DNA from: an uncultured Verrucomicrobiota bacterium
GTDB lineage: Bacteria > Verrucomicrobiota > Verrucomicrobiia > Limisphaerales > Palsa-1400
Assembly: GCA_964558455.1 (NCBI GenBank)
Contig: CAZLEE010000002.1
Location: 1-57,107 of the forward strand
Length of the DNA: 57,107 nucleotides
Reading direction: 5' to 3'
Shown one piece after another: positions 2,078 through 52,048 of the stretch; position 1 is the first letter of the stretch, and every line of letters begins with the position of its first letter. The translations under genes were made by a program, and so were the position numbers. The notes beneath the pieces are model-generated. The model saw only the letters and a list, made by a program, of their open reading frames with translations. It had not been told where the DNA came from and searched no databases.

Positions 2078-2157
2078 CGCGAATGAAATCCCAACTATAA
2101 GCGGAAAATTGTGTCGAGTTGGTCAAGAACCAGGAAATCGGTCAACTTTTAAAAAGT

Positions 2158-19859: not shown

Positions 19860-19879
19860 ATATCAACTAAGTTAATAAT

Positions 19880-20485
19880 CTAATGTTTTGGGGCCGCCGG
19901 AAAATGGCGCGCCACCATTTCCCCGGCCTCCTTCAACCATCCGGCGCGCTGCGGCGGCGTGCTGGCGATGACGGGCGTAAAGGTCCGGCGCTGCGCGTCG
20001 CGCACGCCGCAAAGCCCGAACACGCACTTCTTCCACAACCCCTCAAGCGGATCGCCGAAGACCCCGCGTGTGTTCTCCTCGGGGGTGTTGGCGGTGTTGA
20101 AAATAATGGCCGATTTGGCCTTGAGCAGCCCGAACGAAACGATCTCGCCTTTATCGTTGGGACCAAACCGGTAGGCAATTTCCGGGCGCAGCACCCGGTC
20201 GATCCAGCCCTTCAAAATCGCCGGAGGCATGTCCCACCAGTTTGGATGCACGATGATGATGCCGTCGGCGGCGGCTGTTTCCCGGCAATGTTGGGCGATG
20301 ACCGGATCCAGCTTCGCGTCCGTCTCAAACTCGGCGGTGGTAAGGAGCGCGGGGAAATTTTCCTGATAAAGATCATGCAACGCCGGAGTGTGGTTGTTCC
20401 GCGCCAGCGCTTCCATCGCCGCCTGGGCTATGGCGTGGTTGAAACTTTTCGGATTCGGATGGGCCAGGATGATGGAGATGTTCAT
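19880..20485 (-). CDS. Flavodoxin-like NAD(P)H:quinone oxidoreductase (MdaB/KefF family)
   Basis: ILAHPNPKSFNHAI, DLYQENF and IIIVHPNWWDMPPAILKGWIDRV. Confidence 0.92.
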   Translation of the reverse strand: MNISIILAHPNPKSFNHAIAQAAMEALARNNHTPALHDLYQENFPALLTTAEFETDAKLDPVIAQHCRETAAADGIIIVHPNWWDMPPAILKGWIDRVLRPEIAYRFGPNDKGEIVSFGLLKAKSAIIFNTANTPEENTRGVFGDPLEGLWKKCVFGLCGVRDAQRRTFTPVIASTPPQRAGWLKEAGEMVARHFPAAPKH

Positions 20486-20491
20486 TTACTG

Positions 20492-22384: not shown

Positions 22385-22390
22385 CGCGCG

Positions 22391-24589
22391 TTATGCCGGG
22401 TAATCCAGCGCCTCGCGCGTCATGACCGTGGTCAGCGCCTCGGCGGCGCGATCCTTGGCCAGACGGCATCCGGTGAGGCAGGTGTCCAGTTTCGCGCGCA
22501 ACGCGACGAACTCTTCCAGTCCGTCGCATTTCACGCACGGCCCCGCTTTGAGCGCATGCGCTTCGCCCGCTTCGGACACGTCGGAAACAGACCGGGCCGA
22601 AGCGTCGATGCCGGGAATAATTCCATCAAGCGAGGTCAGTTCCTCCGCGCCATAACAAGCCTGGCAATTCGCCTCATCCCACGTCGGGTGGCGATTGTAA
22701 CCATGCACGATTTCAGCGGAAATGCGGCCGACTTCGCCTGCGGCGCGGGCCGCTTGAATATGGCAAAGGTCGGTGAAAAACGCCACCGTTCCGGCCAGTC
22801 CTCCGGCCAGCGCCGGATTTTCCGCGCCCTTGGTTTCCAGCTCAATGACGTCAAGAATAAATTGTCTTGAAGCCAGCAGCCAGCACAACGCGTCGGCCAG
22901 TGGGAAGGTCACCCCCTGCCGCGCCTTATGATAAAGCTTCGCGCCATCGGCGTCCGTCGCTGTTTGCGTGTGTTGCAGCGTCCAAAGCCAGAGTTTCATC
23001 GCCGTGGCCAGCGCGCAAGCGCCAGTGCCGGGACGTTCCGACGCCGTACGTTTCATTTCACCAATCCATTGCCTGAATTGGGCCAGGAACAGCTCGTTGG
23101 TCATGGTCATGGAAAGCTGCAACCGCTGCACCGCTTCCGGGCCTTCGTAGGTGGCTTCGAGCTGCGCGTCCATCCATTTCTGGCCCAGGAATCCAGGGCA
23201 ATCCTCCGTCACTCCGTAGCCTCCCATCAGACTGACGGCCTCGCGCATCATGGTCGCGCCGTGGCCGGTGTTCCAAAGTTTGCAGGCCGGGCAAAGTACA
23301 TTGGCCAGCGAATCAAGTTGAACAAACTTTGCCAGCGGACTTTCCATCGGCTGGCGTTTATTGACCAGCAGCAACGCTTCATCCTGCGCCTTGGCCAACT
23401 CCTTGAACGCAGCCCGCCCGGTCAGTTTTTTCCCGGCCAGGATGTTATCTTTCTCCTTCTCCAACGGATCAAGTTCGTCAAACAAACGAGCCGCCGCAAA
23501 GCCCAGCGACGCGCTGGCCTCGCCCGTGGCCCAAATATCCGCCAGGCGATGAAGGGCGTCCTGTTTTTGTTGGATGCCCAGTTCGTAACGCGGCGTGCCG
23601 GGCGCGCCCTGCCCCCCGCGAAAACGCCGGCGTTGATAAAGTATCACCGGCTCGACGGCGGACAGCAGTTTGGCCGCCGTCATCAAACCGACGGTCACAC
23701 GCGTGCGGCGGAACACTGCTTCGATGATTTCGCTGTGGGAATACTTCGGGATAATGACCCCGTCCTTGATTGTGTAGCCGCCGACGATCCGGCTGGCGGG
23801 CACTTTCATGTTGAAAATGGGATCGTTGGTGGACGAAAGTTGATGGACAAGTTTTTTGGTGGGCATGCCCCGATCCCAAAGCCCCGGATCGCTTTCTTCC
23901 AAAATCACCATGCAACTGCCCTTGAGTTTCGGGTCGTCGGATTCGACCGCCACCGTCACCACATTGGCAAAGCCCATGTTCGTGATGAACCGGCCCCGCT
24001 TGTCCACTTGCAGCAACGGTTCCGCACCGTCCTTCCATTCAGCGATTCGCACCCTGCCGGCCAACATGCCGGTCTCGACCCCCACGAACGGAATGGGTTC
24101 GGTCAGGGCGAACGCGGCCCGGACCTGTTTGCGGTTTTCACCGGGTTTGAGCGGCGCGGCATTGACCACATATTTGGCGCGTTGCTCCGGCGTTCCCTTT
24201 TCATGAATCGGGGCCAGCCCAAGATTTCCGGCCAGACTGCATGTGGCGGCGCCCGCGTCCACCCAGGACAATTCAAATGCCATCAACGCCAGCGCGAGAT
24301 TCTTGGGGCCGGCAATGAACCCGCCTTGTTCCGGCTCAAGAAAAGCCGCAGTGATGCCGCTTTCGTCGAAATGCGGCAGGAGGCTGGCTTTGTCCGCCGT
24401 CCACTCGTGCGAATTGCGTCCGCCTTTCGCCACCAACCGCGCCACCGGCCCGCGCGCCACCGCCCGCGCGCCTTGCACCAGCATGTGCAGATCGTATCGG
24501 TCGGCAAAGCGCCACATGACCTGGCGGAGATCATCGGAAGGCAGCGTGGTCAGCGTCGGGGACGGTTTTGCTTCAACAGTGGCATTCAT
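22391..24589 (-). CDS. Large acyl-CoA dehydrogenase family protein with a C-terminal extension
   Basis: AFALTEP, GRFITN, LVHQLSSTNDP, CKLWNTG, AVSLMGGYGVTEDCP and ATYEGPEAVQ. 732 aa. Confidence 0.9.
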   Translation of the reverse strand: MNATVEAKPSPTLTTLPSDDLRQVMWRFADRYDLHMLVQGARAVARGPVARLVAKGGRNSHEWTADKASLLPHFDESGITAAFLEPEQGGFIAGPKNLALALMAFELSWVDAGAATCSLAGNLGLAPIHEKGTPEQRAKYVVNAAPLKPGENRKQVRAAFALTEPIPFVGVETGMLAGRVRIAEWKDGAEPLLQVDKRGRFITNMGFANVVTVAVESDDPKLKGSCMVILEESDPGLWDRGMPTKKLVHQLSSTNDPIFNMKVPASRIVGGYTIKDGVIIPKYSHSEIIEAVFRRTRVTVGLMTAAKLLSAVEPVILYQRRRFRGGQGAPGTPRYELGIQQKQDALHRLADIWATGEASASLGFAAARLFDELDPLEKEKDNILAGKKLTGRAAFKELAKAQDEALLLVNKRQPMESPLAKFVQLDSLANVLCPACKLWNTGHGATMMREAVSLMGGYGVTEDCPGFLGQKWMDAQLEATYEGPEAVQRLQLSMTMTNELFLAQFRQWIGEMKRTASERPGTGACALATAMKLWLWTLQHTQTATDADGAKLYHKARQGVTFPLADALCWLLASRQFILDVIELETKGAENPALAGGLAGTVAFFTDLCHIQAARAAGEVGRISAEIVHGYNRHPTWDEANCQACYGAEELTSLDGIIPGIDASARSVSDVSEAGEAHALKAGPCVKCDGLEEFVALRAKLDTCLTGCRLAKDRAAEALTTVMTREALDYPA

Positions 24590-36904: not shown

Positions 36905-38068
36905 CTATCCGCTGCGCAGGAATTCGCCCGCCACCCAGTCGGCGTAACGCAGACCCTGCGGGGTCAATTGAAAACGGATCGCGTCCAGCCTGCCGTAGCC
37001 CAATTCGATCATGCGATGGATTTCGCCCGCCCACTCCTGCTGGAGATCAAAACCGGTTCGCTCCCGGAACAGGGCCAGCGGCCAGCCGGCAGTCATGCGC
37101 AAACCGAAAGCGGCGATTTCCCCGGCGCGAGCCAGCGGTGCCAATTCTTCGGTGGATTCGATGGCGCGCCGGCCTTCTTCCAAAAGGTCGCAATACATCG
37201 CGGTGTTGGACCAGTTTTTGGTCCGGGCGCCGCGCACGTAACCCGACGCGGAAGGTCCCAGGCCGTGAAAGGAGCCGCCCCGCCAGTAGTTGATATTATG
37301 CTGGCAGGCATGATCCGGCGTCTCGGCCGGCGCGGGCGAAAGGTGGCGGGCGAAGTTCGCCACTTCGTATTGTTGGAATCCGGCCCGGGCGGCGGCGGCG
37401 AGCAATTCGTCATACATGGCGCAGGCCAATTCCTCGTCGCGGGCTATCCGCCCGGCTTGCAATTGCTTGAACAAGGGGGTGTCGTCCTCGTAAATCACCT
37501 CGTAAGAGGAAAGATGCTCGCTGCCGAGAGCCACCGCCTCGGCCAATGTCCGGCGCCACATCTCCATGGTCTGGCCGGGAATGGCGAACATCAAATCGAT
37601 GTTCAAATTGTCGAAACCGGCGGCGCGCAAAATATCGAACGATTTGAAAATCATTTCGCGGCTGTGAATCCGCCCCAGCCGCTCCAGCAACGCCGCGTCA
37701 AATGATTGCACCCCCATGGAAACACGGTTGACGCCCCAATCGCGCAACAGCCGCGCCTTGTCGGCGGAAACGGTCGCCGGATTGCACTCCACCGTCCATT
37801 CCGCCGCGCCCAGCAGATGGAGGCGTTCCATGGCGCGGAAAACGCGCTCCCATTGTTGCAGGGTCAGGAGCGATGGCGTGCCGCCGCCGAAGAAAACAGC
37901 GCGCGGGCGCAACTCGGACGCGACCAATTCCATTTCGCGGATCAATCCGCCGACATAACGATTGATCAGGGCGCCGTCACCGGCCTCGGAATAAAAGGCG
38001 CAGTAGCCGCACTTTTTGGCGCAGAACGGCACATGCACATACAAATTGCGGACTGGCGAGTCGTCCAT
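36905..38068 (-). CDS. hemW: Radical SAM heme chaperone HemW
   Basis: YVHVPFCAKKCGYCAF (CxxxCxxC), FFGGGTPS, RVSMGVQSF, YEVANFA and the HemW-type HNINYW motif. Confidence 0.9.
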   Translation of the reverse strand: MDDSPVRNLYVHVPFCAKKCGYCAFYSEAGDGALINRYVGGLIREMELVASELRPRAVFFGGGTPSLLTLQQWERVFRAMERLHLLGAAEWTVECNPATVSADKARLLRDWGVNRVSMGVQSFDAALLERLGRIHSREMIFKSFDILRAAGFDNLNIDLMFAIPGQTMEMWRRTLAEAVALGSEHLSSYEVIYEDDTPLFKQLQAGRIARDEELACAMYDELLAAAARAGFQQYEVANFARHLSPAPAETPDHACQHNINYWRGGSFHGLGPSASGYVRGARTKNWSNTAMYCDLLEEGRRAIESTEELAPLARAGEIAAFGLRMTAGWPLALFRERTGFDLQQEWAGEIHRMIELGYGRLDAIRFQLTPQGLRYADWVAGEFLRSG

Positions 38069-38209
38069 TATTAAATAATTTTACAGGTTCCGAGACCGCG
38101 CGTAAACATAACCGTTGCAACCAAATAATGATACGACAAATCGTTGTGGCTCAAGCCTTGGAAGCGTCGTTCTTGCATTGTGCGCCCGGATTATTCATCT
38201 TAATCGCAT

Positions 38210-39592
38210 ATGAGCAATCAGTTTCGTACCGAATCCGACTCGATGGGTCCCATGCAAGTTCCGTCCACCGCTTATTACGGCGCGCAAACGGCCCGGGCCA
38301 TCGAAAATTTCCCCATCAGCAAACTGCGCTTTCCGCGCCCTTTCATCCGCGCCCTCGGTCTGATTAAAAAGAACGCCGCGCTGACCAACGAGGAGCTGGG
38401 CGGACTCAAACCCGAAATCGCTGCCGCCATTGTCAAGGCGGCCCAGGAAGTGGCCGACGGCAAGTGGGACGGCGAATTCGCCATTGATATTTTCCAAACG
38501 GGTTCGGGCACTTCGACGAACATGAACGCCAACGAGGTCATCGCCAATCGCGCCATCGAATTGCTTGGCGGCAAGATCGGCGAAAAATTGGTTCACCCCA
38601 ACGACCACGTCAATCGCGGACAATCCAGCAACGACGTCATCCCCACCGCCATGCATGTGGCGGCCCTCGACGGGATTGAAAATTCTCTCATCCCGGCCCT
38701 GACGGAATTGCAGGCGGCTTTGGCGGCAAAAGCCAGGGAATTTCACGACGTGCTCAAAATCGGACGCACTCATTTGCAGGATGCGACCCCTATCCGGCTT
38801 GGTCAGGAATTCGGCGGCTACGCCAGCCAGGTCCAACACGGCATCGCCCGGTTGCGCGCCGCGCAAAAAAATCTGGGCGAACTGGCGTTGGGCGGCACCG
38901 CTGTCGGCACCGGCATCAACACCCCCCCCACTTTCGCCAGGCTCACCATCGCGCGCCTGTCCAAGGAAACCGGCCTTGCCATGTGCGAGGCGCCCAACCA
39001 TTTTGAGGCGCAAGGCGGCAAAGACGCCGTGGTGGAAGCATCCGGGGCGCTCAAAACCGTCGCCGTCAGCCTGATAAAAATCGCCAACGACATCCGTTTC
39101 CTCGGCTCCGGTCCGCGCCTCGGCCTGGGCGAGCTGCAATTGCCTGCGACGCAGCCCGGCTCTTCCATCATGCCCGGCAAAGTGAACCCGGTGATGTGCG
39201 AAATGCTTTTGCAGGTTTGCACGCAGGTCTTGGGCAACGACACCTCAATCACGTTTGCGGGGAGTTTCGGGAATTTCGAGTTGAACGTCATGATGCCCGT
39301 CATGACCCACAACCTTCTCGAAGCCATCGAACTGCTGTCCAAAGGCAGTCAGGTATTCGCCCGCCGCTGCGTCAGCGGTCTGGAAGCCAACCGGGAAAAA
39401 TGCAACAGCAACCTGGAATTGAGTCTTTCCAACTGCACCATCCTCGCGCCGGTCATCGGTTACGACAAGGCGGCGAAAATCGCCAAGGTGGCCTTCCAGA
39501 CCAATCGCACCATCCGGCAGGTCGCCCTCGAAACCTCCGGGTTGGACAAAGCCAGGCTGGATGAGTTGCTGGACCCGGCCAAGCAAACCTAA
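38210..39592 (+). CDS. fumC: Class II fumarate hydratase
   Basis: RTESDSMG, FQTGSGTSTNMN, HPNDHVN, GRTHLQDATP and GSSIMPGKVNP. Confidence 0.97.
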   Translation: MSNQFRTESDSMGPMQVPSTAYYGAQTARAIENFPISKLRFPRPFIRALGLIKKNAALTNEELGGLKPEIAAAIVKAAQEVADGKWDGEFAIDIFQTGSGTSTNMNANEVIANRAIELLGGKIGEKLVHPNDHVNRGQSSNDVIPTAMHVAALDGIENSLIPALTELQAALAAKAREFHDVLKIGRTHLQDATPIRLGQEFGGYASQVQHGIARLRAAQKNLGELALGGTAVGTGINTPPTFARLTIARLSKETGLAMCEAPNHFEAQGGKDAVVEASGALKTVAVSLIKIANDIRFLGSGPRLGLGELQLPATQPGSSIMPGKVNPVMCEMLLQVCTQVLGNDTSITFAGSFGNFELNVMMPVMTHNLLEAIELLSKGSQVFARRCVSGLEANREKCNSNLELSLSNCTILAPVIGYDKAAKIAKVAFQTNRTIRQVALETSGLDKARLDELLDPAKQT

Positions 39593-39625
39593 CCGCGCCC
39601 TGGCGCGGATGGATGAAGTCATGGG

Positions 39626-39655
39626 GACAATCCGGCCGGCAGAGGCCGGATTGTC
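39626..39655. terminator. Strong intergenic hairpin between fumC and actA (possible terminator)
   Basis: Perfect 12-bp stem GACAATCCGGCC-ggcaga-GGCCGGATTGTC. A second short stem lies at 39593-39608. Confidence 0.5.
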
Positions 39656-39730
39656 GTGGAGTCCGGGTGGACCCAAAACATTTTGCATTGTTGTCCGGCT
39701 GTACTGATGTGTTGTAATTGACGCGTAGAA

Positions 39731-40384
39731 ATGTCTGACCTATTTCCAAAGTGGACCAATAATCTGCCGCGCAATATCATCATTGGCGCCCTTCTCGCCA
39801 GCACAGCCGTCACCGCCGGGGTCGGTTATTATTTCACGCCCAAATACACCCGGGCCGGTTACCAGCCGATTCAATCCGTCGCTTTCCCCCACGACGCGCA
39901 TGTGACCCAATTGGGACTCGATTGCCGTTACTGCCACAGCGGCGTCGAAAAGTCGTGGTATTCCAACATCCCCGCCACCTCGGTCTGCATGAATTGCCAC
40001 AACCAGGTGTTAAAAGATGACGAGCGACTGGCGGCGGTGCGGGAAAGCGCGGCCACGGGCAAACCGATCCCGTGGGTGCAGATTCATAAATTGCCGGACT
40101 ACGTCTATTTCAACCACGCCGTCCATGTGAACCGCGGCGTCAGTTGCGTCGAATGTCACGGCCAGATCAACCGCATGGATGAATCTTACCATGCCAAACC
40201 GTTGAGCATGTCTTTTTGTCTGGACTGCCATCGCGACCCCGCCCAACACCTGCGGGCGTTGGATAAAATCACCGATCTGGATTGGAAAGCGCCAAACGAG
40301 GACATGCAACGGGCCGGCGGACGGAAGCTCGCCCATGATTGGCATGTTCAATCGCTGCAAAATTGCTCGACCTGCCACCGATGA
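39731..40384 (+). CDS. actA: Alternative complex III pentaheme cytochrome c subunit
   Basis: N-terminal TM, QPIQSVAFPH and five CxxCH motifs (CRYCH, CMNCH, CVECH, CLDCH, CSTCH). Confidence 0.93.
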   Translation: MSDLFPKWTNNLPRNIIIGALLASTAVTAGVGYYFTPKYTRAGYQPIQSVAFPHDAHVTQLGLDCRYCHSGVEKSWYSNIPATSVCMNCHNQVLKDDERLAAVRESAATGKPIPWVQIHKLPDYVYFNHAVHVNRGVSCVECHGQINRMDESYHAKPLSMSFCLDCHRDPAQHLRALDKITDLDWKAPNEDMQRAGGRKLAHDWHVQSLQNCSTCHR

Positions 40385-43300
40385 AAACGATTCCTCCATC
40401 CTGTCCCGGGCCGGAAACAGGCCCGAGGTATTGGCGCAGTTTGGATCAACTGGCCAACACCCCGGAATTCCGCCAATGGGCGGAACGCGAATTTCCGGCC
40501 GGCGCGGATGACTTGAGGGACCCGCTTTCCCGCCGCAGTTTCGTCAAAATCATGTCGGCTTCTTTTCTGCTGGCCGGCTTGGGCGCGACCGGCTGCCGCC
40601 GCCCGGTTGAGAAGATTTATCCCTTTGCCAAAATGCCGGAGAATTACGTTCACGGCGTCCCGCAGTATTTTGCGACCGCCATGCCAACGCGCCGCACGGC
40701 CATCCCCCTGCTGGCAAAGTCCCACGAGGGCCGGCCCGTGAAAGTCGAGGGCAATCCCGATCATCCCGACAGCAACGGCGGCACCGATGCTCTGGCGCAA
40801 GCTTCCATTCTCGGTCTTTACGATCCGGATCGCGCCATGCGTTTCGCCCGCAATGGTTCGGGCGAAAGCCGCCAGGCTGCCTTGGACGCCCTGACCTTCA
40901 TTTCAAAAAACCTGGGGGATGGCGCCGGGCTGGCTTTTCTGCTCGAACAAAGCAGCTCCCCTTCCCGCTCGCGACTGCAACAGGCCATTTCTGAAAAATT
41001 TCCCAAGGCAAGCTGGCATATCTATGAGCCGGTCGATCTCGATTTGCCGCGTCGAGCCGCGTCGCTCAGTCACAACAGCCCGGTCGGGCCTTTTTACAAG
41101 CTGGACGAGGCGTCGGTGATTCTTGCCCTGGACTGCGATTTTATCGGCAGCGAGGAAAATTCTGTCAATAACATCCGCCGCTTCGCCCAAGGCCGTCATT
41201 TGGACGGCAGGAAAAGCCCGATGAGCCGGTTGTACGCGGTGGAAAGTCTTTTCACCCTGACCGGCGCCAACGCCGACCATCGTTTGCGCGTCGCTCCCAG
41301 CCTGCTCGTCCCGCTGCTGGCCCGTCTGGCGCTCAACATTCTGGATCCGTCCGACATGGATTCGCAATTGAATGAGCTGGCCGCCCCGGCCCAGGCCCAT
41401 GACGACTGGATTATTCCCTGCGCCACGGACCTCAAAGCCCATCCCGGCAAAAGCCTGGTCATGGGCGGCTACCGTCTGCCGCCCGCCGCGCATTTGCTGG
41501 TGGCGGCAATGAACGAGGCGCTGGGATCTGTCAATCATACTCTCGAATACCATCCGGTTCAGTCGTCCGCGGAAGGGACGATTGCCGAGTTGGCCGGCGC
41601 GCTCAACGCCGGACAGGTTCAAACCCTGGTCATTCTCGGCGGCAATCCCGCCTACAACGCGCCCGTTGACTTGAACTGGCCGCAAGCGCAAGCCAAAGCG
41701 GGAATGGTTATCCGCCTCGGTAACTACGAAGACGAAACTTCATGGAACGCCGCCTTGCACCCCGACCGTCAATGGGATTTGCCGGCGGCCCATTATCTCG
41801 AAGCCTGGGACGACGCCCGCACCGCAGACGGCTCCGTCGTGCCAATTCAGCCGCTGATTGAACCCTTGTTTGGCGGTTTGACCGAATTGGAGGTGCTCGC
41901 CACCATCGGCGGCCTTTCCCCAACCAGCCCGTATGAAATCGTCCGTCAAACCCATCGCAAAATGAGCGGGGACGACGAAAACAGTTGGCGAAAATTTCTG
42001 CATGACGGTTTTCTGGCCGGCAGCGCGTCGGCAAAAGCGGTGGTGCAATATGATCCGGCGGCGTTGGGGCAGGCATTGGATCAGATCAAATCAGATGGTT
42101 CCGTAGCGACCAGCGCCAGGCTGGATGTGATTTTTTACCGGGATGCGAAGGTGGACGACGGACGCTACAACAACAACGGCTGGTTGCAGGAATTGCCCGA
42201 TCCGGTGACAAAATTGACTTGGGACAACGCCGTTTTGATCAGCCCGAAAACCGCCAGGGACCTGGGTGTTTTCACGGAACGTCTTCGTCAGAGCCAGCAG
42301 TTTTTCAATTGCGTCGTCGAAATCAAACTGGGTGGCCGCTCCATTCGCGGCCCGGTTTGGGTACAGCCCGGCATGGCCGACAACACCGTCGGACTGGCCT
42401 TGGGCTACGGACGACAAAAAACCGGACGGGTCGGCGCCGGCACGGGTTTCAATGCTTATGCCATCCGCGGCAGCAACGCGCTCCATTACGCATCCGGGGC
42501 CGAACTGGTCAAAATCAGCGGCACGAGCTACGAACTGGCCAACACCCAAAGCCACTGGCACATGGAGGGCCGCCCGATCGTGCGCGAAGCCAATCTGGAT
42601 CAGTTCCGGCGGGACCCGGCCTTTGCCAAAAGGATGCGGCCGGAATTGCCGGCCAACTCCGGCTCGCTTTATCCCAATCCGCTGGATGAGACGAAAAAAA
42701 ACGCCCTGCATCAATGGGGCATGTCGATTGATTTAAACCGGTGCGTTGGCTGCTCCGCCTGCATGATCGCCTGCCAAAGCGAAAACAATATCCCGATTGT
42801 GGGCAAGGATATGGTCGGCAAAAGCCGTGAAATGCACTGGATCCGCATTGACCGCTATTACGCCGGACCGGAAAAAAATCCGGACGAGGAACCGCAAGCC
42901 GTTATGCAGCCAATGCTCTGCCAGCACTGCGAAATGGCTCCTTGCGAAAGTGTTTGCCCGGTCAACGCCACCTCGCACGACGACGAGGGTTTGAACGTCA
43001 TGACCTACAACCGGTGCGTCGGCACGCGCTATTGTTCAAACAACTGCCCGTATAAGGTCCGGCGTTTCAATTTTTTCGATTACAACCGCCGCCCGCTCAA
43101 TCATCTTTACCAAAGCCCGCTCGTCATGACCACGGACGGCGAATGGGAACTGTGGCGCTGGCTCAAGAACCCGGACAAAGGCAATCTGCCGGAAGACGAA
43201 TGGCAACTGGCCCGGCTGGTGAAAAACCCGGATGTCACCGTCCGCATGCGCGGCGTCATGGAAAAATGCAGCTTCTGCTTGCAGCGCATCGAGCAGGCCA

Positions 43301-43644
43301 GGATCGCCCAAAAAATCAAGGCGCGCGACAGCGACAATATCCGCCTTTCGGAAAAAGACGGAACCATCCCCCGGACCGCCTGCCAGCAAGCCTGCCCGGC
43401 GGAGGCGATCCTTTTTGGCGACATTTCCGATCCTGAGAGCCAGGTGAGCAAGGCCAAGAAACAGGAACGCGACTACGCCGTCCTGGAATTTCTTCTGACC
43501 AAGCCGCGCACCACTTACCTGGCAAAAGTCCGCAATCCCAACCAGGAAATGCCGGACTACAAACGGCATTCCATGCCTTATACGACCGAAGAATTCAAGA
43601 GAGCGGGCGGCGCTTCTGTTGAAAGCGGGAAAGGCCCTCTCTAA
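40381..43644 (+). CDS. actB: Alternative complex III subunit B (molybdopterin-oxidoreductase-like fold plus Fe-S domain, Tat)
   Basis: [68 protein letters not shown] and MEKCSFC. Confidence 0.95.
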
Positions 43645-45131
43645 TGGATCATTTCCCCGCCAGTTCATTGGTAGTGGATGAGCCGAAATTGCGGGTGCAG
43701 GCGCCGCCGCCGGCGTTGGAGCGCGCGCCGTTGGTAAACAACCTTCGCAGCCCCGGCTGGATTTCCGACCGGATTGCCAGCGTCATTGAGGGCGGGACGC
43801 CGGGTTGGTGGAAAATCAGTTTCGGCATCAGTGTGACCCTTATGACCCTTTGCTTCGCGATGGTTCTCTGGCTCATGTCCACCGGCGTCGGCCTCTGGGG
43901 CAATCAACATCCGATGATGTGGGGCTGGGCGATTATCAACTTCGTCTGGTGGATCGGCATCGGCCACGCCGGGACGTTGATTTCGTCCATCTTGTTTCTG
44001 CTTCGCCAGCGCTGGCGCACGTCCATCAACCGCACGGCCGAGGCCATGACCATTTTTGCCGTGGTGTGCGCAGGCCTGTTCCCGCTCATTCACATCGGGC
44101 GGATTTGGCTGGGTTGGTGGTTGTTGTCCTTTCCCAACTCGAACAATATCTGGCCGCAATTCCGTTCGCCGCTGATGTGGGACGTGTTTGCCGTCTCGAC
44201 CTATTTCACCGTGTCGGTGCTCTTCTGGTACATGGGATTGATCCCCGACCTGGCGGTTATGCGGGACCGGGCCAAAACCAAAATACGGAAATTCGCCTAC
44301 GGACTGTTCTCGTTGGGCTGGACCGGATCCACCCGCCATTGGAGCAATTACGAAAAAGCCTATCTGATTCTGGCCGGCCTTTCCACGGTGTTGGTGCTGT
44401 CGGTTCATTCCATCGTGTCGCTGGACTTCTCCGTTTCGCAGCTTCCGGGCTGGCACACCACCATTTTCCCGCCCTACTTCGTCGCCGGCGCGGTCTATTC
44501 CGGCTTCGGCATGGTGCTGACACTGCTGATTCCCTTGCGCCGGCTGCTCAAACTCGAGGATATCATCACCGTCCGGCATGTGGATTTGATGTGCAAAATC
44601 GCCCTGACCACCGGCTCCATTGTCGGTTACGCCTACTGCATGGAATTTTTCATCGCTTGGTATGGCGGCAATCCTAACGAAAAGTTCATGTTCTTCCACA
44701 ATCGCGCGGCGGACCCGTTCATTTTCGGCCCGCTCCTCGGCATCCAGCCCGCTCCTTATTGGTGGGCTTTCTGGACCATGGTTTTCTGCAACGTCGTCGT
44801 GCCGCAATTTTTCTGGTTCAAAAAAATCCGGTCCGGCCTGTGGTTCGTTTTCGGGTTGGCGATCCTGATTAACGTCGGCATGTGGTTCGAACGTTTTGTC
44901 ATCGTCATCACTTCCTTGCAACGGGATTTTCTCCCGTCCAACTGGAGTGATTACAGCCCGACATTCGTGGACGTCCTGCAATTTCTTGGGACGTTCGGAT
45001 TGTTCTTCACCCTGTTCCTGCTCTTCCTGCGTTTCGTGCCGTTAATCGCCATCGCCGAAGTCAAGGGCGTCACCCCGCAGGCTGATCCTCATCATCCGCT
45101 CGGCGGCGCAAAAATAGGAGGGAAACTCTGA
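43644..45131 (+). CDS. actC: Alternative complex III subunit C (NrfD/PsrC family, quinol-binding)
   Basis: [45 protein letters not shown] and [11 protein letters not shown]. Confidence 0.95.
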
Positions 45132-45661
45132 TGCCGGGGGTTTACGCAATCATGGCGGAATTCGAGACGCCCGCAGCCACGCTGCACGCCGCCGAAAAAG
45201 TGTATGACGCGGGTTTCCGCGACTGGGACGTTTTCACCCCCTATCCCGTTCACGGCATGGACCAGGCCATGGGCATTAAAAATTCCAAGGTCGGATGGTT
45301 TACCTTTATTGGCGGTTGCGCCGGCTACCTGACGGGCATGTTGATGATTTGGTTCATGAACGCGGTGGATTACCGCATTATCATCGGCGGCAAACCGATG
45401 TTCAGCCCGTTCGCCGCCTTCCCGCCGTCTTACGAATTGGCCATCTTGTTTGGCTCCTTTGGCGCCTTGCTTGGCATGCTCTTTTTGAACCGCCTGCCCC
45501 GCCTGCATCATCCGCTGCTCAAAAACGCCCGGTTCGCCCTCGCCACCCACGACCGCTTTTTCCTCGTGATTGAAACCGGCGACGCCAAATTCTCCGATCT
45601 CGAAACCCGCCGTCTGCTCGAATCCCTCGGCAGCCGGCACATCGAATGGGTGGAGGAATAA
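45131..45661 (+). CDS. actD: Alternative complex III subunit D (DUF3341)
   Basis: AEFETP, DVFTPYPVHG, IIGGKP, PPSYELAILF and DRFFLVI. Confidence 0.93.
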   Translation: MPGVYAIMAEFETPAATLHAAEKVYDAGFRDWDVFTPYPVHGMDQAMGIKNSKVGWFTFIGGCAGYLTGMLMIWFMNAVDYRIIIGGKPMFSPFAAFPPSYELAILFGSFGALLGMLFLNRLPRLHHPLLKNARFALATHDRFFLVIETGDAKFSDLETRRLLESLGSRHIEWVEE

Positions 45662-46305
45662 TGCGTTACTTTCTGCTCCTTTTTCTTTTAAGCATTATCA
45701 CCGTGGTGGAGATTTGCGGGTTTCAGGGCAGCCGCAGCCGCCGGCCCCCCATTGAATTATTCCCGGACATGGTTCGACAAAACAAAGTCAGGCCCCAAAC
45801 AGCCGGCGATTTCTTTGCCGACCAGCTTTCCTCGCGCCCGATCCCGGCCGGAACGATCCCGCGCCAGCCGGCCATCGTCATCAACGGCCAGTTGGTTTAT
45901 CCCTATGAGGATTCGCCCGTCAATACCGGCAAAATCCCAGGCACGACCAATTTCATCGCCATCAACCCCCTGCCCCCGACCCGCCAATTGCTTGATCGCG
46001 GCCAGAAGCGGTATCAAATCAATTGTCTGCCCTGCCATGGACCGCTGGGCGACGGTCGGGGGATCACGAGCAAATACAACATGTTTTCCATGGCCAATTT
46101 TCACGACCAACGGCTGGTGGACATGCCGGACGGCGAAATTTTTGACACCATCACCCACGGCAAGAATTTGATGGGATCCTATGGCGCTCACCTGACCATC
46201 GAAGAGCGCTGGGCCATTATTTATTACGTGCGCGCGCTGGAAAGAAGCCAGTTAGGCTCCGTCGGGGACGTGCCGGAACCGGAACGCGCCCAATTCAAAA
46301 AATAA
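45661..46305 (+). CDS. actE: Alternative complex III subunit E (monoheme cytochrome c)
   Basis: PDMVRQ, RGQKRYQINCLPCHG, ITHGKNLMGSY and ERWAII. Confidence 0.92.
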   Translation: MRYFLLLFLLSIITVVEICGFQGSRSRRPPIELFPDMVRQNKVRPQTAGDFFADQLSSRPIPAGTIPRQPAIVINGQLVYPYEDSPVNTGKIPGTTNFIAINPLPPTRQLLDRGQKRYQINCLPCHGPLGDGRGITSKYNMFSMANFHDQRLVDMPDGEIFDTITHGKNLMGSYGAHLTIEERWAIIYYVRALERSQLGSVGDVPEPERAQFKK

Positions 46306-46308
46306 GTT

Positions 46309-47562
46309 ATGAGTTTGGATAAATATACGCCGCAGACCGCGCCGCTGGATGTTTCCAGATGGCGCAATTTGCCGGTGATACTGATCGTCGCGGGGGCGAT
46401 TGGCGTTTTTGGCGGGGTGGCCTTGAGCGGTGACCCTGTCCGGCAATTTGCCTTTTCTTGGCTTCTGGGATTCATGTTTTGTTTGAGTTTTGGGTTGGGC
46501 GGTTTTTTCCTGGTCATGATTCACCATCTGGTGGACGCCAGTTGGTCCGTCCCCATCCGGCGCGTGACTGAAACGCTTGCCTGCCTGTTGTGCCCGGCCA
46601 TGTTGATTTTGTTCCTGCCCGTGGCCTTCCTCGCGCCCAAAATCTATCCGTGGCTTCGCCCGTCCGAACAAATGCATCCGAACCATGCGCTCGCCTCCAA
46701 ATATCCCCTTTTCACTGCTCTGGGATTTTATATCACGGCGGCGGTGCTGTTCGCGGTGTGGTGGATTTTTACCAGCGCCCTGCGCCGTTGGTCGGTGAAA
46801 CAAGACGAAACCGGCGCGGCCGAATGCACGTACAAAATGCGGTTTTATTCGTGCCTCGGCATCGTTTTTTTTGCCTTCACTGTGACGATGGCCTCGGTCA
46901 TGTGGATGAAGGGTTTGATGGATGAATGGTATTCGACCGTGTATGGAGTCTGTTATTTCGCCGCGTCCGTCTGGACGACGCTGCCCACGGTCTATCTGAT
47001 TGTGCTGGTCTTGCAGCGCGCGGGGGTTTTGAGAGGCGTGGTCAGCGGCAAGACGTACTACTTCATGGGTTCTCTGTTCTTCGCCTTCACCGTTTTCTGG
47101 GCCTACGTCAATTTCATCCAGTATTTCGTCATCTGGAACGCCAACATGCCCGAGGAAACCTTCTGGTACCTGGCGCGCGAAACTGGAACATGGAAGCACG
47201 TCGGGCAATACGTGATTATTTTCGGACATTTTTTCATTCCGTTCCTGATGCTGCTGCGCATTGATTTTAAGTTGAAGTTGTCGGTCATGTTCCCGCTCGC
47301 CGTCTGGGCGTGGTTGATGCATTTTGTGGACATTGAGTTCCAAATCATGCCGGTCTTGCACAAACAATCCATTCTCACACCGGGACTTTTGTCCGACGCA
47401 GGATGCGTCTTGTTGATGGCTGGCATTTTGGCCAGGACTTTCGTCGTTTCGTTCAGCCGTCACGCGCCCTATCCGCAGAGGGACCCCCGCATGGCTGAAT
47501 CTCTGGGCATTTACGTTCCCTCTTCCTCTGACCTTTCAACCGCATCGGAGCGCGCCAAATGA
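46309..47562 (+). CDS. actF: Alternative complex III subunit F
   Basis: About 10 TM segments, WSVPIRR, WYSTVYG, FWAYVNFIQYFVIWNANMPEET and HFFIPF. Confidence 0.92.
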   Translation: MSLDKYTPQTAPLDVSRWRNLPVILIVAGAIGVFGGVALSGDPVRQFAFSWLLGFMFCLSFGLGGFFLVMIHHLVDASWSVPIRRVTETLACLLCPAMLILFLPVAFLAPKIYPWLRPSEQMHPNHALASKYPLFTALGFYITAAVLFAVWWIFTSALRRWSVKQDETGAAECTYKMRFYSCLGIVFFAFTVTMASVMWMKGLMDEWYSTVYGVCYFAASVWTTLPTVYLIVLVLQRAGVLRGVVSGKTYYFMGSLFFAFTVFWAYVNFIQYFVIWNANMPEETFWYLARETGTWKHVGQYVIIFGHFFIPFLMLLRIDFKLKLSVMFPLAVWAWLMHFVDIEFQIMPVLHKQSILTPGLLSDAGCVLLMAGILARTFVVSFSRHAPYPQRDPRMAESLGIYVPSSSDLSTASERAK

Positions 47563-47936
47563 GACTGGAATCCCGCCATGCCAATCCGCAAACCGCCGTC
47601 AATGTCGCGGCCATTCTGGCGGCGTTCCTGGTCATGGGTTTTCTGGTCGCCCTGATGCGGCACTACACCGCGACGCCGTCTCTCGCCCAGACGCGCGGGG
47701 CGGAGCGCATGAAAATCCTGGCGGACTTCAAAGCCGCCAACGAACCGTTCCTGGAAAAATACGATTGGCAGGACAAGGATAGGGGCATAATCCACATTCC
47801 GATCACGCGCGCCAAAGATCTGGTTTTGGAGGAGTGGCAGAATCCGGCCGCGGGTCGTTCCAATTTGATTGAACGGGCCGCCAAAGCCTTTGCCCCCCTG
47901 CCCAAGCCGGCCCCGGTGAAGAATGAATATGAATAG
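47559..47936 (+). CDS. actG: ActG-like single-TM subunit
   Basis: One TM followed by YDWQDKDRGIIHIPITRAKDL, matching the recalled ActG Y-W-D...G...IPI-RA motif. Overlaps actF by 4 nt. Confidence 0.75.
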   Translation: MRLESRHANPQTAVNVAAILAAFLVMGFLVALMRHYTATPSLAQTRGAERMKILADFKAANEPFLEKYDWQDKDRGIIHIPITRAKDLVLEEWQNPAAGRSNLIERAAKAFAPLPKPAPVKNEYE

Positions 47937-49353
47937 ACGGTGCCAGCCGATTCCACGGACCGAAATTGATGCGTCGTGCTCCGTTCCGCTGCTCAGTCTT
48001 TTGGGCGGCGGACTTCTCTGGCTTTTGATTGGATGCATTTTCGCCCTCATCGCCTCCCTCAAATTTCACGCCCCCCATTTCCTGGCCAATGACGCCCACT
48101 GGACCTATGGTCGCATCCACGCCGCTCATTTAACCGCCCTGCTCTACGGTTTCGCCCTGCCGTCCGCGCTTGGGGTCGGATTGTGGCTGCTCTGCCGGCT
48201 TGGACGCATGCGGCTGGCCGGTCTGGCGGTGATTTTTATCGGAGCCGTCCTTTGGAATCTTTCCGTGGCCGTCGGCGTGGCCGGTATTCTGTGCGGCGAC
48301 GGCGACGGCTACGAGAGTTTTGAGATGCCGCGCTACGTGACAGCGACTTTATTTGTCTCCTACTTGTTGATCGCAACCTGTGGTGTCCTGACCTTTCACC
48401 GTCGCCGGGAGGACACGCTCTACCCCTCCCAATGGTTTGTCTTAGGCTCGCTGTTTTGGTTTCCATGGATTTTCAGCACCGCGTCCGCCCTGTTGCTCTG
48501 CCATCCGGCGCGCGGGGTCATGCAGGCGTCCATCGCATGGTGGTTCGCCAATAATCTCAGTTACATCGTGCTTGGCTTTACCGGTTTGGCCTCCATTTTT
48601 TACTTTGTGCCAAAGTTGTTGGGCCGCCCTTTGCACAGCACCCGCCTGGCGATTTTCGCCTTTTGGGGACTGGCGCTATTCGGCAGCCTGGGCGGCGTTC
48701 CAGACGGCGCTCCGCTTCCCGCATGGATGGTCAGTCTTTCCATGGTTGGCACCGTTCTGACGGCCATCCCGGTTCTGGCCGTGATCCTCAATCTCTATCA
48801 AACCGCCCGCAACGACACTCGTGCCCTCGATACCGACACCACCCTGCGCTTCACCTACGTGGCGTTGATTTTCTGGCTGATTGCCAACGTGCAACGCATC
48901 GTCGGCGTGTTGCCGGACGTGAGCGGGTTGACCAATTACACCTGGTATCCGGTGGCGCAGTGGGAACTTTTCCATTGCGGCTTTTTCGCCTTTGCCATCT
49001 TCGGCGCGATTTATTTCATCGTGCCGCGCCTGTTGAACGGGTCGGATGATTTGCCTGTCTGGTCGCCCCGTCTGATCCAATGGCATTTCGGGACCATGCT
49101 GGCAGGCGTCTTGATTTCCTATCTGGCGCTGCTTGTGGCCGGCATCGGACAGGGTTATTTTCTGGGCAATCCGGATTATACCTTCACCCAAATCATGACC
49201 GGCACATTGATTCCATTGCGCGCCGGCACAACCGGCGACCTGCTGTTTATCATTGGCGTGATTATTTTTCTCTTGAACTTCGCCTTGCTCCTCAGGCAAT
49301 GCCGCCATGGCCGGACTGAAAAAGCCGTTGCGCAACGAAAGGAGCGCGCATGA
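47923..49353 (+). CDS. cbb3-type oxidase subunit I (CcoN) homologue lacking active-site ligands
   Basis: About 12 TM segments with CcoN landmarks (TYGR..AH, LYPSQWF, AWW, YFVPK..GRPLHS.RL, LPAW, IYFIVPR, WHF). The His ligands are replaced (see findings). Confidence 0.85.
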   Translation: MNMNRRCQPIPRTEIDASCSVPLLSLLGGGLLWLLIGCIFALIASLKFHAPHFLANDAHWTYGRIHAAHLTALLYGFALPSALGVGLWLLCRLGRMRLAGLAVIFIGAVLWNLSVAVGVAGILCGDGDGYESFEMPRYVTATLFVSYLLIATCGVLTFHRRREDTLYPSQWFVLGSLFWFPWIFSTASALLLCHPARGVMQASIAWWFANNLSYIVLGFTGLASIFYFVPKLLGRPLHSTRLAIFAFWGLALFGSLGGVPDGAPLPAWMVSLSMVGTVLTAIPVLAVILNLYQTARNDTRALDTDTTLRFTYVALIFWLIANVQRIVGVLPDVSGLTNYTWYPVAQWELFHCGFFAFAIFGAIYFIVPRLLNGSDDLPVWSPRLIQWHFGTMLAGVLISYLALLVAGIGQGYFLGNPDYTFTQIMTGTLIPLRAGTTGDLLFIIGVIIFLLNFALLLRQCRHGRTEKAVAQRKERA

Positions 49354-50024
49354 ACAACGGACCCGTGGTTTTTCTCGCTCTGTTTGTGGCCATGGCCGGC
49401 TCATGGCTCGCTTTCGTGATGGGGCCGGAATTGCAAATCGGCGCAACCCGCCCGACAACCAGTATTGTGGCCGGCATGACCGACGAAATCTATCCCAACG
49501 CCAAACCCGGCGCGGCCCGCCAGGGCGCCGAGGTCTATCGCGCCAACGGCTGCGTCGCCTGCCATACGCAGCAAGTCCAACCGGCGGCGCTCGGGCCGGA
49601 TATTAATCGCGGTTGGGGCGTGCGCCGCAGCACCGCCTACGATTATCTTTTTGAGTCACCGCTCCAGCTTGGGACGCAACGAATCGGTCCCGATCTGGCC
49701 AATGCGGGCCGGCGCATGGATGCCAACTCCATCCTTGTGCGCCTTTACGAACCGCGCGCCATCACGCCCCGCTCCATCATGCCGCCTTATCCCTATTTGT
49801 TTGAAAATCACAAGATCACAGGGATTCCGTCCCCGGACGCTTTGCAATTGCCCGCCGGCTTTACTCCGCCAACTGGTTGCGAAATCATTCCGTTGCCCGA
49901 GGCGCGCGCTTTGGCCGCGTATGTGACAAGCCTGCATCAGGACGGCTATCTTTACGAAGCGCCGCCGCCGGTCGAAAAAACAAACGGACCGCCACCCACC
50001 GCGAAAATTTCACCCGCGAAATGA
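49350..50024 (+). CDS. ccoO: cbb3-type subunit II (CcoO/FixO) monoheme cytochrome c
   Basis: N-terminal TM, GAEVYRANGCVACHTQQV, GTQRIGPDLAN and PRSIMPPYPYLF. Confidence 0.9.
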   Translation: MNNGPVVFLALFVAMAGSWLAFVMGPELQIGATRPTTSIVAGMTDEIYPNAKPGAARQGAEVYRANGCVACHTQQVQPAALGPDINRGWGVRRSTAYDYLFESPLQLGTQRIGPDLANAGRRMDANSILVRLYEPRAITPRSIMPPYPYLFENHKITGIPSPDALQLPAGFTPPTGCEIIPLPEARALAAYVTSLHQDGYLYEAPPPVEKTNGPPPTAKISPAK

Positions 50025-50638
50025 GCCTGAACCCGAAAAGAAATCCGGTGCCCGGCGAACCGGCCGAGCCGGTCGGCGGCGATGGCGCGATTTCAATCTG
50101 GCTGATTGCGGCCCTTGGCGTCCTGTTTTGTTGGGGACAATTTTATCTGGGCAGACACGCCGGCGGATTTGAACGGGCGGTCTATTATCCCTACCGGAGC
50201 CTGCGCGAGGTGGCTGCGGCCAATCCGCGCAATAAAGGCGACAGGGTCATTGCCATGGGCCGGGATGTCTTCACCAAGACCTGTTCCGTCTGTCATCAAC
50301 CCAACGGTATGGGCAAGCCCGGAACCGCTCCGCCCCTGGCCGGTTCCGAATGGGTGCTCGCTCCCGGCCCGAACCGGATTGCGCATGCCATCTTAAACGG
50401 ATTAACCGGCCCCATAATCGTCCAGGGTAAAGATTGGAATCTGACCATGGTGCCGTGGAAAGATGTCTATGACGACGAGCATCTCGCCGCCACTTTGACC
50501 TACATTCGCAATTCCTGGGGCAACAAAGCCCCGCCCGTGAAACCGGAGGAAATCGCCGCCGCCCGCAAAGACATTCATCCCGGCCCGGAAACCGCGCCTG
50601 AAATAACGTCCATGCCGGAAAAATTGCCCGGCATGTAA
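50021..50638 (+). CDS. Membrane-anchored monoheme cytochrome c
   Basis: TM segment, GRDVFTKTCSVCHQPNGMG, APPLAGSEWV and MVPW. ATGA overlap with ccoO. Confidence 0.9.
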   Translation: MSLNPKRNPVPGEPAEPVGGDGAISIWLIAALGVLFCWGQFYLGRHAGGFERAVYYPYRSLREVAAANPRNKGDRVIAMGRDVFTKTCSVCHQPNGMGKPGTAPPLAGSEWVLAPGPNRIAHAILNGLTGPIIVQGKDWNLTMVPWKDVYDDEHLAATLTYIRNSWGNKAPPVKPEEIAAARKDIHPGPETAPEITSMPEKLPGM

Positions 50639-50653
50639 GGCAGAGTCGACCGG

Positions 50654-52048
50654 TCAGCTTTGAGCCAATTCCGGCCACAACAATGCGCCCATGCGCATTC
50701 CCTTCTCGTAACAATCCAGGCTGAATTTTTCGTTGGACGAGTGCGCATTGTCGTCAGGCAACGCCAAACCGAGCAACAGCGAATCGGCGTGGAGCACATG
50801 CTTGAATTGCGTGACGATGGGAATGGAACCGCCTTCCCGCATGAGAATCGGATCGTAGCCGAATGCCTCCTTCAAGGTGCGCATGGCCGCCTTCGCCATG
50901 GGACTGTTCGGCGACACCAGATAGGCTTCGCCGCCATGCCCGGCCTTGACCTCCATTTTGACCGTTGGCGGACAAAGCGCATCAAGGCGTTTCAGCAAAA
51001 CTTTGCGAACGTGTTCCGGGTCCTGGTTCGGGACCAGCCGGAAAGTGATCTTGGCGGTGGCTTTGGCCGGCACAATGGTCTTGCTCCCCTCCCCCTGGTA
51101 TCCGCTGGTCAGCCCGTTGATCTCGACGGTGGGACGCGCGCTCCGTTGCTCGTTGAAGGTAAAACCGCGTTCCCCGAATAATTTTGGGACGCCGAGAAAT
51201 TTCCGGTATTGCTCCGCGGTTTGGGGCAGGCGCGCCGCCTCTTTTCGCTCGCGCGCGGAAAGTTTCGCCACGCCGTCATAAAATCCCGGAATGTTGACCC
51301 GTCCCTGCGCGTCGCGCAGTTGGGCCACTATTTGACACAATGCCATGGCCGGATTGTCAACCGTTCCGCCATAGATGCCGGAATGTAGATCGCGCGACGG
51401 GCCATGCACGGTGATTTCACAGGTGAGGATGCCGCGCAAGGCATAGGTCAGCGCGGGCAACTTCAGGGAGGGCATCCCCGTGTCGGAAATTATCACCGCC
51501 TTGCAGGATAGTTCCCGGCGGTTTGCCTTGAGAAACGCCTCCAGATTCCGGCTGCCCACCTCTTCTTCGCCTTCGATCACGAAAGTCAAATCGCAGGGCA
51601 ATTCAGTGCCCGTTTTCAGGTAGGCTTCCACCACGTTCAGGTGGGCAAGGTTCTGGCCTTTGTTATCGCTCGCGCCCCGGGCAAAAAGCGAACGGCCTTC
51701 GATGCGCGGGACGAACGGGTCGCTCTTCCAGAGGTTAAACGGCTCGGCGGGCTGCACGTCGTAATGGCCATAGACCATGTAGGACGGCTTTTTTGTTCCG
51801 CGCGCGCGCGGTGTGCCGGCCACAACCACCGGATGCCCGGACGTCGGAACCAGGCGCGCTTCCAGCCCGATCTTGCGGCAACGGGCCACCAGCCACCCGG
51901 CGCAAGCCGTCATGTCGGCGCGATGATTGGCCTGCGCGGAAACGCTGGGAAAACGGACGTATTGACACAGATCGTCGATAAACCGGGATTTGTTTTTATC
52001 CAGATAATCCAAAACCGGCTGTATGGCGTGACGCGTGGTATTCTTCAT
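50654..52048 (-). CDS. M20 family dipeptidase/deacylase
   Basis: FPSVS, YGHYDVQP, ARGASDNKG, EGEEEVGS, DLHSG and AHSSNE. Confidence 0.93.
   Translation of the reverse strand: MKNTTRHAIQPVLDYLDKNKSRFIDDLCQYVRFPSVSAQANHRADMTACAGWLVARCRKIGLEARLVPTSGHPVVVAGTPRARGTKKPSYMVYGHYDVQPAEPFNLWKSDPFVPRIEGRSLFARGASDNKGQNLAHLNVVEAYLKTGTELPCDLTFVIEGEEEVGSRNLEAFLKANRRELSCKAVIISDTGMPSLKLPALTYALRGILTCEITVHGPSRDLHSGIYGGTVDNPAMALCQIVAQLRDAQGRVNIPGFYDGVAKLSARERKEAARLPQTAEQYRKFLGVPKLFGERGFTFNEQRSARPTVEINGLTSGYQGEGSKTIVPAKATAKITFRLVPNQDPEHVRKVLLKRLDALCPPTVKMEVKAGHGGEAYLVSPNSPMAKAAMRTLKEAFGYDPILMREGGSIPIVTQFKHVLHADSLLLGLALPDDNAHSSNEKFSLDCYEKGMRMGALLWPELAQS

Follow-up and report, generated by a model that had tools for sequence, protein, structure and literature searches.

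A cofactor-ligand-deficient CcoN homologue encoded with alternative complex III in Verrucomicrobiota, a possible non-catalytic membrane scaffold

The window analysed in this study is the whole of a 57,107-nucleotide stretch of DNA (contig CAZLEE010000002.1 of assembly GCA_964558455.1, positions 1 to 57,107, forward strand) from an uncultured Verrucomicrobiota bacterium of the Limisphaerales. It carries an operon for alternative complex III (ACIII; genes actA to actF and the ActG-like orf125), which continues into a module of three proteins related to the cbb3-type, or C-family, haem-copper oxidases. These are CcoN*, a homologue of the catalytic subunit CcoN; CcoO*, a monohaem homologue of CcoO; and a membrane-anchored monohaem cytochrome c. 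CcoN* clearly derives from the CcoN family, yet with its His set and Tyr gone and its score for the ccoN equivalog model far too low, it is predicted to fail as a catalytic CcoN. We are somewhat inclined to believe that the module is a relic of an ancestral ACIII-cbb3 supercomplex, in which CcoN* serves as a non-catalytic membrane scaffold for two c-haems.

Phmmer served to align CcoN* with the cbb3 chains of the PDB, and MAFFT to align it with Rhizobium FixN and with its plasmid-borne relatives in Azoarcus KH32C and Ralstonia solanacearum. Seven positions were read: a His in helix II, a CuB His in helix VI, the Tyr and a pair of CuB His in helix VII, and the pair of His that bind haem in helix X. 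At these positions canonical CcoN has H-H-Y-H-H-H-H and CcoN* has H-N-G-P-D-Q-E in three agreeing alignments. Only one of the six canonical His is kept (helix II, H69), the others being N, P, D, Q and E, and the cross-linked helix VII Tyr is replaced by Gly; of 200 close relatives, 197 have Gly or Ala there. The same loss was obtained with phmmer against the PDB, MAFFT L-INS-i and MAFFT FFT-NS, and relatives that keep the ligands (here called live) aligned cleanly as HHYHHHH. With N, G, P, D, Q and E at these sites, the haem b3-CuB centre is not expected to form, and because the CuB His, the Tyr and the haem b3/b ligands are lost, neither O2 nor nitric oxide (NO) should be reduced by CcoN*. 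The sequence-only reading of this DNA had called the oxidase-like partner catalytically dead, and the absence of five of six His and the Tyr bears out that prediction.

The fold of the protein was retained. The PF00115 score of CcoN* was 143 bits against a cut-off of 34.8, and that for TIGR00780 (ccoN equivalog) was 126 bits, far below the cut-off of 583. The AlphaFold2 (AF2) model of CcoN* had 12 long helices, a mean predicted local distance difference test (pLDDT) of 83 and a predicted template modelling score (pTM) of 0.84. In Foldseek, the best structural matches of this model were cbb3 CcoN chains, with a template modelling score (TM-score) of 0.84 to 3mk7_A and 9g83_t, a root-mean-square deviation of about 3 Å over the full length and an identity of 20-21%.

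The ligand loss was found throughout the family. A scan of one genome per GTDB species gave 258 genomes with a relative, the best 80 of which were analysed, and these 80 were nearly all Verrucomicrobiota (Verrucomicrobiia, Limisphaerales, Pedosphaera). A degenerate CcoN* was present in 79 of the 80 loci (here called dead), each with 0-3 of the six His, and all six were kept in one. The complete set was found in none of 120 close database homologues. When 1.84 billion cluster representatives were searched exhaustively with HMMER, 461 clusters matched at E<=1e-30; among the best 150 of these 461 (50%-identity cluster representatives), 146 were degenerate and 4 had all six His, and no His of the six was left in 82 and one in 51. 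The former ligand columns are hypervariable. Where conservation reaches >=85%, the residue is G, P, W, R, Y or F, and mostly one that live CcoN has too. The survey of conserved columns found no conserved His, Met or Cys in the family that could be a substitute, and in helices II, VI, VII and X no His reached 60% among 124 diverse dead representatives of full length. The hypervariable haem-ligand columns and the lack of substitutes give no support to the earlier proposal that CcoN* is an electron wire. The other role proposed for it, a membrane scaffold, was supported, and any wire would run through the haems of CcoO* and the cytochrome c. We also considered whether Q346, E348, D261 and H210 make up a new metal site, and rejected this, as these residues were not conserved beyond the close subclade.

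In ten pairs of close species, the ratio of nonsynonymous to synonymous substitution rates (dN/dS) of CcoN* was 0.06-0.29, and ActF, ActE, CcoO* and the cytochrome c gave the same range in these pairs. The sequence-only reading would have been undermined by an arrangement that occurs in this genome only and is decaying; the module instead occurs in 79 of 80 species-level genomes and is under purifying selection. As judged by these sequence comparisons, ligand loss is a trait of the family and not decay. It is very improbable that the module is a pseudogene remnant or that the ligand loss is an artefact of alignment or annotation: the scores for TIGR00780 and TIGR00781 are far under their cut-offs and CcoN* evolves faster than ActC and ActD (median identity across dead loci 46% for CcoN*, 72% for ActC and 72-75% for ActC/ActD), but the open reading frames (ORFs) are intact in 79 species, the start/stop overlaps are consistent with translational coupling, 461 clusters were found, the loss recurs across alignment methods in which live relatives read normally, and the dN/dS values led us to reject the pseudogene explanation.

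The gene order was invariant. In every locus, as far as the contig reaches, actA-B-C-D-E-F, orf125, CcoN*, CcoO* and cytochrome c follow one another on one strand. actA was in the syntenic position in all 49 dead loci that extend far enough upstream, and a homologue of orf125 was in the same position in 79 of 79 dead loci, as well as in the loci L084, L090 and L085 described below. Natural fusions of CcoN* and CcoO* exist, for example P0122, a protein of 706 amino acids (aa) with COX1 and FixO domains. Among the distant representatives, P0250 and P0168 have act genes upstream, and the short contig of P0122 has only an ActG-sized ORF there. The cultured soil isolate Pedosphaera parvula Ellin514 encodes ActA-F, a 134-aa ORF, CcoN*, FixO and cytochrome c, and its CcoN* has none of the six His. 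In this isolate (ABOX02000007.1; L092 8308-9584), ActF was called as two ORFs of 303 and 121 aa, which may be a draft-assembly frameshift or a real split and would matter for its use as a model.

The earlier suggestion of a synteny survey across Verrucomicrobiota, Acidobacteriota and Planctomycetota was thus answered in part. The module is essentially Verrucomicrobial and widespread there, and the live form also occurs in Planctomycetota; no Acidobacteriota were seen among the loci. Eight loci (L005, L029, L030, L041, L043, L048, L064 and L075) were typical Verrucomicrobial act-ccoN* operons in metagenome-assembled genomes (MAGs) with other labels, namely Saccharimonadales, Haliangiales, Baltobacteraceae, Acidoferrum, Binatia, Bifidobacterium and Angelobacter. 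These are probably mis-binned contigs rather than a real spread of the module. In a neighbour-joining tree built with the ligand columns removed, the degenerate proteins formed one cluster apart from the live ones; the tree has long branches and no support values, and its placement of P0168 conflicts with the best database neighbours of that protein, which are live Opitutales proteins. We do not claim a single loss event from this tree.

The two cytochromes of the module have kept their haem sites, as the sequence-only reading had noticed. Aligned to the CcoO chains of the PDB, CcoO* keeps CVACH (to residue 68), GPDL and the methionine motif IMPPYPYL, and the cytochrome c has CSVCH. The CXXCH motif is kept in CcoO* in 71 of 73 loci and in the cytochrome c in 72 of 72. 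CcoO* scored 72 bits for PF02433 (FixO) against a cut-off of 29.6, and 63 bits for TIGR00781, below the equivalog cut-off of 200. The C-terminus of CcoO* (window 49960-50024) is rich in Pro, Ala, Thr and Asn. In the family it has repeated TNAP/TNSP units and a terminal ...TN[AS]PAK; in the window it ends with ...TAKISPAK. The PAK ending was found in 36 of 73 complete CcoO* ORFs and not in the live Telmatocola, Azoarcus, Ralstonia and Rhizobium relatives inspected, and it may be a tether or docking tail. In many more-distant loci (L028-L065), CcoO* has about 300 aa in place of about 225 aa, the extra sequence lying between CXXCH and the GPDL region.

Live counterparts of the whole operon were found. 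In Telmatocola sphagniphila (Planctomycetota; L084), ActA, ActB, a fused ActC+ActD, ActE and ActF are followed by an ActG-like protein, a fully liganded CcoN, FixO and cytochrome c, and both FixS/CcoS and the P-type ATPase CcoI are encoded. The same operon with full ligands occurs in Opitutaceae bacterium TAV1 (L090), with a CcoS-like ORF and with CcoI not found, and in the MAG UBA1319 (L067), the sole live locus among the 80, with both CcoS and CcoI. In all three ACIII-linked live loci the CcoS/FixS gene lies just upstream of ccoN. A locus-level tblastn search of the window and the 79 dead loci found no CcoS/FixS or CcoI/FixI, copies of which may lie elsewhere in the genomes, and L067 was the sole locus of the 80 with either gene. 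As the dead loci are without CcoS and CcoI and the live loci have CcoS, the loss of the ligands goes along with that of the linked genes for cofactor insertion and copper delivery. All ligands were complete in 114 of 120 Opitutales-type homologues. The ACIII-linked P0168 (Opitutales MAG, L085 5791-7251) keeps the helix II, VI and X His and has lost the helix VII His pair and Tyr, in a locus without CcoS. It may be an intermediate, perhaps haem-only, or an independent partial loss. A further cluster, in a 'Verrucomicrobia subdivision 3' MAG (L091, 10001-15654), consists of a stand-alone live CcoN-FixO-cytochrome c set with CcoS and CcoI and without ACIII; its neighbours are catalase, DsrE/DsrC-like and ECF sigma factor genes. 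On this evidence, a separate, working oxidase copy may be present in lineages that have the dead module.

As the simplest account, we propose that ACIII and a three-subunit C-family oxidase ancestrally shared one operon, an arrangement that Opitutaceae and Telmatocola still have, and that the oxidase chemistry was lost in this Verrucomicrobiota lineage while all three proteins were kept. CcoN* would then be a folded 12-helix membrane platform with a structural role, which anchors CcoO* and the CcoP-like cytochrome c beside ACIII. CcoO* and the cytochrome c would contribute one c-haem each downstream of the six haems of ACIII, and menaquinol-derived electrons would pass from ActA/ActE over these two c-haems to an acceptor encoded elsewhere, for which another oxidase, a soluble cytochrome c or a periplasmic reductase are candidates. 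The features consistent with translational coupling, the invariant synteny, the CcoN*-CcoO* fusions and the live ACIII-cbb3 operons make a functional non-catalytic partnership with ACIII the best explanation at present.

Several points weigh against this scaffold explanation. A large 12-helix protein seems unneeded just to hold two small cytochromes that have transmembrane helices of their own. Scans of 39300-51000 for promoter and terminator consensus sequences gave counts no higher than in shuffled sequence and so do not bear on co-transcription. No real terminal oxidase was found in a scan of the 57-kb window. Lastly, CcoN* may still bind a haem: the kept H69, the nearby H351 (helix X, one helical turn from the canonical helix X position) and the co-occurrence of His would permit a residual low-spin haem b in the subclade of the window.

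A CcoN* that still held one haem or more, such as a low-spin haem b between helix II (H69/H66) and helix X (H351), would be a redox subunit acting as a wire, a sink or an unconventional reductase. We consider this unlikely. H66, H210 and H351 co-occur in the close family, and among 201 close relatives the odds ratio was 9.3 for H66/H351 and 6.9 for H69/H351, but phylogeny confounds these values. The helix VI CuB His is kept in 115 of 200 close relatives, and P0168, which keeps both haem ligand pairs without the helix VII His pair, indicates that haem-only intermediates can exist. However, the CcoN* of the window lacks the proximal His of haem b3 and two CuB His, the cofactor-insertion factor CcoS is absent from all dead loci, the survey of diverse dead representatives shows no widely shared His in the four ligand-bearing helices, and more than half of the best 150 have none of the six His.

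It is quite unlikely, in our opinion, that CcoN* is the first cofactor-free protein derived from a haem-copper oxidase to act as an obligate ACIII subunit, that is, a module that couples energy or acts as a gate, by way of a proton path or a conformational link, with its two c-haem partners as the electron exit. If this were true, Verrucomicrobial ACIII would be a new, larger respiratory machine and not ACIII with a dead passenger. A related idea, in which CcoN* is more than a scaffold, being an ion-conducting or conformationally coupled ACIII module that aids proton or sodium translocation, we regard as very unlikely. The fold is that of a proton-pumping oxidase, the cytoplasmic-side polar residues Y227, S239, K231, R235, Y364 and H388 are common with live CcoN, and proton pumping by ACIII is debated (PMC8498564, PMC5928083). 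These few conserved polar residues are, however, mostly at helix ends and conserved in live oxidases too, and may be structural; moreover, a CcoN* without an internal redox centre would have no obvious driving force.

The annotation of this family deserves attention. JGI and NCBI annotate CcoN*-type proteins as 'cbb3-type cytochrome c oxidase subunit I', and ACIII-adjacent ccoNO in Verrucomicrobia has been read as a high-affinity oxidase in reviews and genome papers (PMC8498564, PMC6688271, PMC13608581). For a large clade of Pedosphaera/Limisphaerales type, that conclusion is probably wrong. A wrong oxidase annotation would inflate predictions of microaerobic respiration for very common soil, peat and freshwater bacteria. 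The CcoN* family, with at least several hundred clusters, is a clear case of a pseudoenzyme within a respiratory chain, which shed its His and stayed under selection, and live forms can be compared with partly and fully degenerate ones. For the mechanism of ACIII, it is a natural experiment on what a supercomplex partner contributes without catalysis. The cultured P. parvula Ellin514 carries the module, which makes these ideas testable, with Opitutaceae TAV1 and Telmatocola as live controls.

The layout of the operon is given in Table 1. The ORF list contained ten co-directional genes on the + strand from 39731 to 50638, in exact agreement with the sequence-only reading in gene set and coordinates. 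That reading had described overlaps or gaps of 3 nt or less. The 3 nt gap, between actE and actF, was found, but two of the overlaps are larger: the junctions from actA to actE overlap by 4 (ATGA, between actA and actB), 1, 1 and 16 nt (with an ActE start at 45661, the 16 nt become 1 nt), and those from actF to the cytochrome c by 4, 14, 4 and 4 nt, the ATG at 50021 overlapping the CcoO* stop in the last case. All features of ACIII were found, namely pentahaem ActA, ActB with molybdenum cofactor (MoCo)-like and iron-sulfur (FeS) domains, NrfD-type ActC and ActF, ActD and monohaem ActE. The operon was said to meet a convergent peptidase gene, and a gene of the M20 family indeed lies 15 nt beyond the cytochrome c stop on the other strand; in related loci this gene is absent or at a differing distance.

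Table 1. Genes of the ACIII operon and the gene at its boundary in the 57,107-nucleotide window.
Feature	Coordinates	Strand	Product and features	Matches
actA	39731-40384	+	Pentahaem cytochrome c, N-terminal transmembrane helix; 5 CXXCH	Cytochrome_C7/c3 (Pfam), QrcA-like (NCBIfam)
actB	40381-43644	+	Twin-arginine translocation (TAT)-exported, molybdopterin-like domain and 4Fe-4S domain	TIGR04519, QrcC/QrcB-like, Fer4
actC	43644-45131	+	NrfD-type quinol-binding membrane subunit	PF03916, 77 bits
actD	45131-45661	+		PF11821, 213 bits
actE	45646-46305 (start may be ATG 45661)	+	Monohaem cytochrome c; CLPCH	PF13442
actF	46309-47562	+	Second NrfD-like membrane subunit	phmmer to 6f0k_F (R. marinus ActF), E=4e-61
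orf125, ActG-like	47559-47936	+	125 aa, single transmembrane helix	Weak match to PDB ActG 8k9e_G, E=0.014
CcoN*	47923-49353	+	Cofactor-ligand-deficient cbb3 subunit I homologue	PF00115, 143 bits
CcoO*	49350-50024	+	Monohaem c, N-terminal transmembrane helix, Pro/Ala/Thr-rich C-terminal tail	FixO, 72 bits
cytochrome c	50021-50638	+	205 aa, membrane-anchored, monohaem, like a single-haem CcoP; CSVCH	PF00034/PF13442
M20 peptidase gene	50654-52048	-	Convergent; outside the module, marks the operon boundary	PF01546, PF07687

The promoter probably lies in the 138 nt that precede actA (39593-39730), with no convincing consensus match there. Directly upstream (36905-39592) lie a HemN-like radical SAM gene on the - strand and a class II fumarase gene on the + strand. 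Farther away, 19053-24589 on the - strand includes an electron transfer flavoprotein (ETF):quinone oxidoreductase-like gene (20492-22384) and an acyl-CoA dehydrogenase-like gene (22391-24589), and small ORFs downstream of these could be ETF subunits. The ETF:quinone oxidoreductase-like gene is a putative quinone-reducing input that would feed ACIII. At 2119-7431, an ORF of 1770 aa has the passenger-associated transport repeat (PATR) as its sole Pfam match and probably encodes a large surface or autotransporter-like protein.

Studies have shown that ACIII genes stand beside C-type oxidase genes in Verrucomicrobia, as stated in passages of PMC6688271 and of PMC8498564, which cites Refojo 2010. 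This gene cluster is not new in itself; what appears to be undescribed is the dead state, and we found no description of a ligand-less CcoN in the full-text literature of open-access papers. The ACIII-cbb3 clusters of Verrucomicrobia (Opitutaceae, Methylacidiphilum) and Planctomycetota, read here in L090, L084 and L067, have the same gene order and homologous proteins. They differ in that the live cluster has six His and the Tyr, with CcoS upstream of ccoN, whereas the CcoN* of the window has one of six His, no Tyr and neither assembly gene.

Compared with the cbb3 CcoNOP oxidases of known structure (P. stutzeri 3MK7, P. aeruginosa 8SMR and R. capsulatus 6XKW), CcoN* has the same 12-helix fold, with a TM-score of 0.82-0.84, and the module likewise has a CcoO partner with CXXCH and Met and a further membrane-anchored c-type cytochrome. 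Unlike these oxidases, which it resembles at 20-21% identity, it has no binuclear-centre ligands, no CcoQ, and a monohaem third subunit in place of the dihaem CcoP. Among proteobacterial plasmid records, the closest live relative (36% identity) is the cluster of Azoarcus sp. KH32C pAZKH and the Ralstonia solanacearum megaplasmid, which shares the FWFP motif region and the CcoN-CcoO-cytochrome c core. It differs in having all ligands, a linked SCO copper chaperone and no link to ACIII. The Azoarcus (L081 10761-14829) and Ralstonia (L082 10662-14937) clusters encode a CcoN of about 545 aa with a long N-terminal extension, CcoO, cytochrome c, SCO and a hypothetical protein; 117 Ralstonia records matched, and in the Ralstonia record subunit I is annotated 'hypothetical protein'.

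Supercomplexes of ACIII with A-family oxidases are known, as reported in passages of PMC5928083 and of PMC8361435, which cites Sun 2018, and they give a precedent for the partnership with ACIII proposed here. In the ACIII-aa3/caa3 systems of Flavobacterium johnsoniae and Rhodothermus marinus, haem-copper-oxidase genes also follow directly after the ACIII operon, and electrons pass from the ActA/ActE haems to the c-haem domain of the partner without a soluble carrier, a likeness that would extend to the module of the window. Their partner is a working A-family oxidase, whereas that in the window is C-family-derived and has no catalytic centre.

According to Murali et al. 2024 (PMC11214002), the active-site His show complete conservation throughout the haem-copper families, gNOR excepted, and CcoN* resembles gNOR in departing from this rule. 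In gNOR, one His is changed to Asp and the enzyme is still proposed to be catalytic, whereas CcoN* has lost five of the six in the window and commonly all six in the family.

Retention of an enzyme fold as a structural subunit after the loss of catalysis is familiar elsewhere in respiration. The core 1 and core 2 proteins of the mitochondrial bc1 complex derive from a processing peptidase and have kept its fold in this way. CcoN* has another fold and belongs to another complex, and the comparison is an analogy only.

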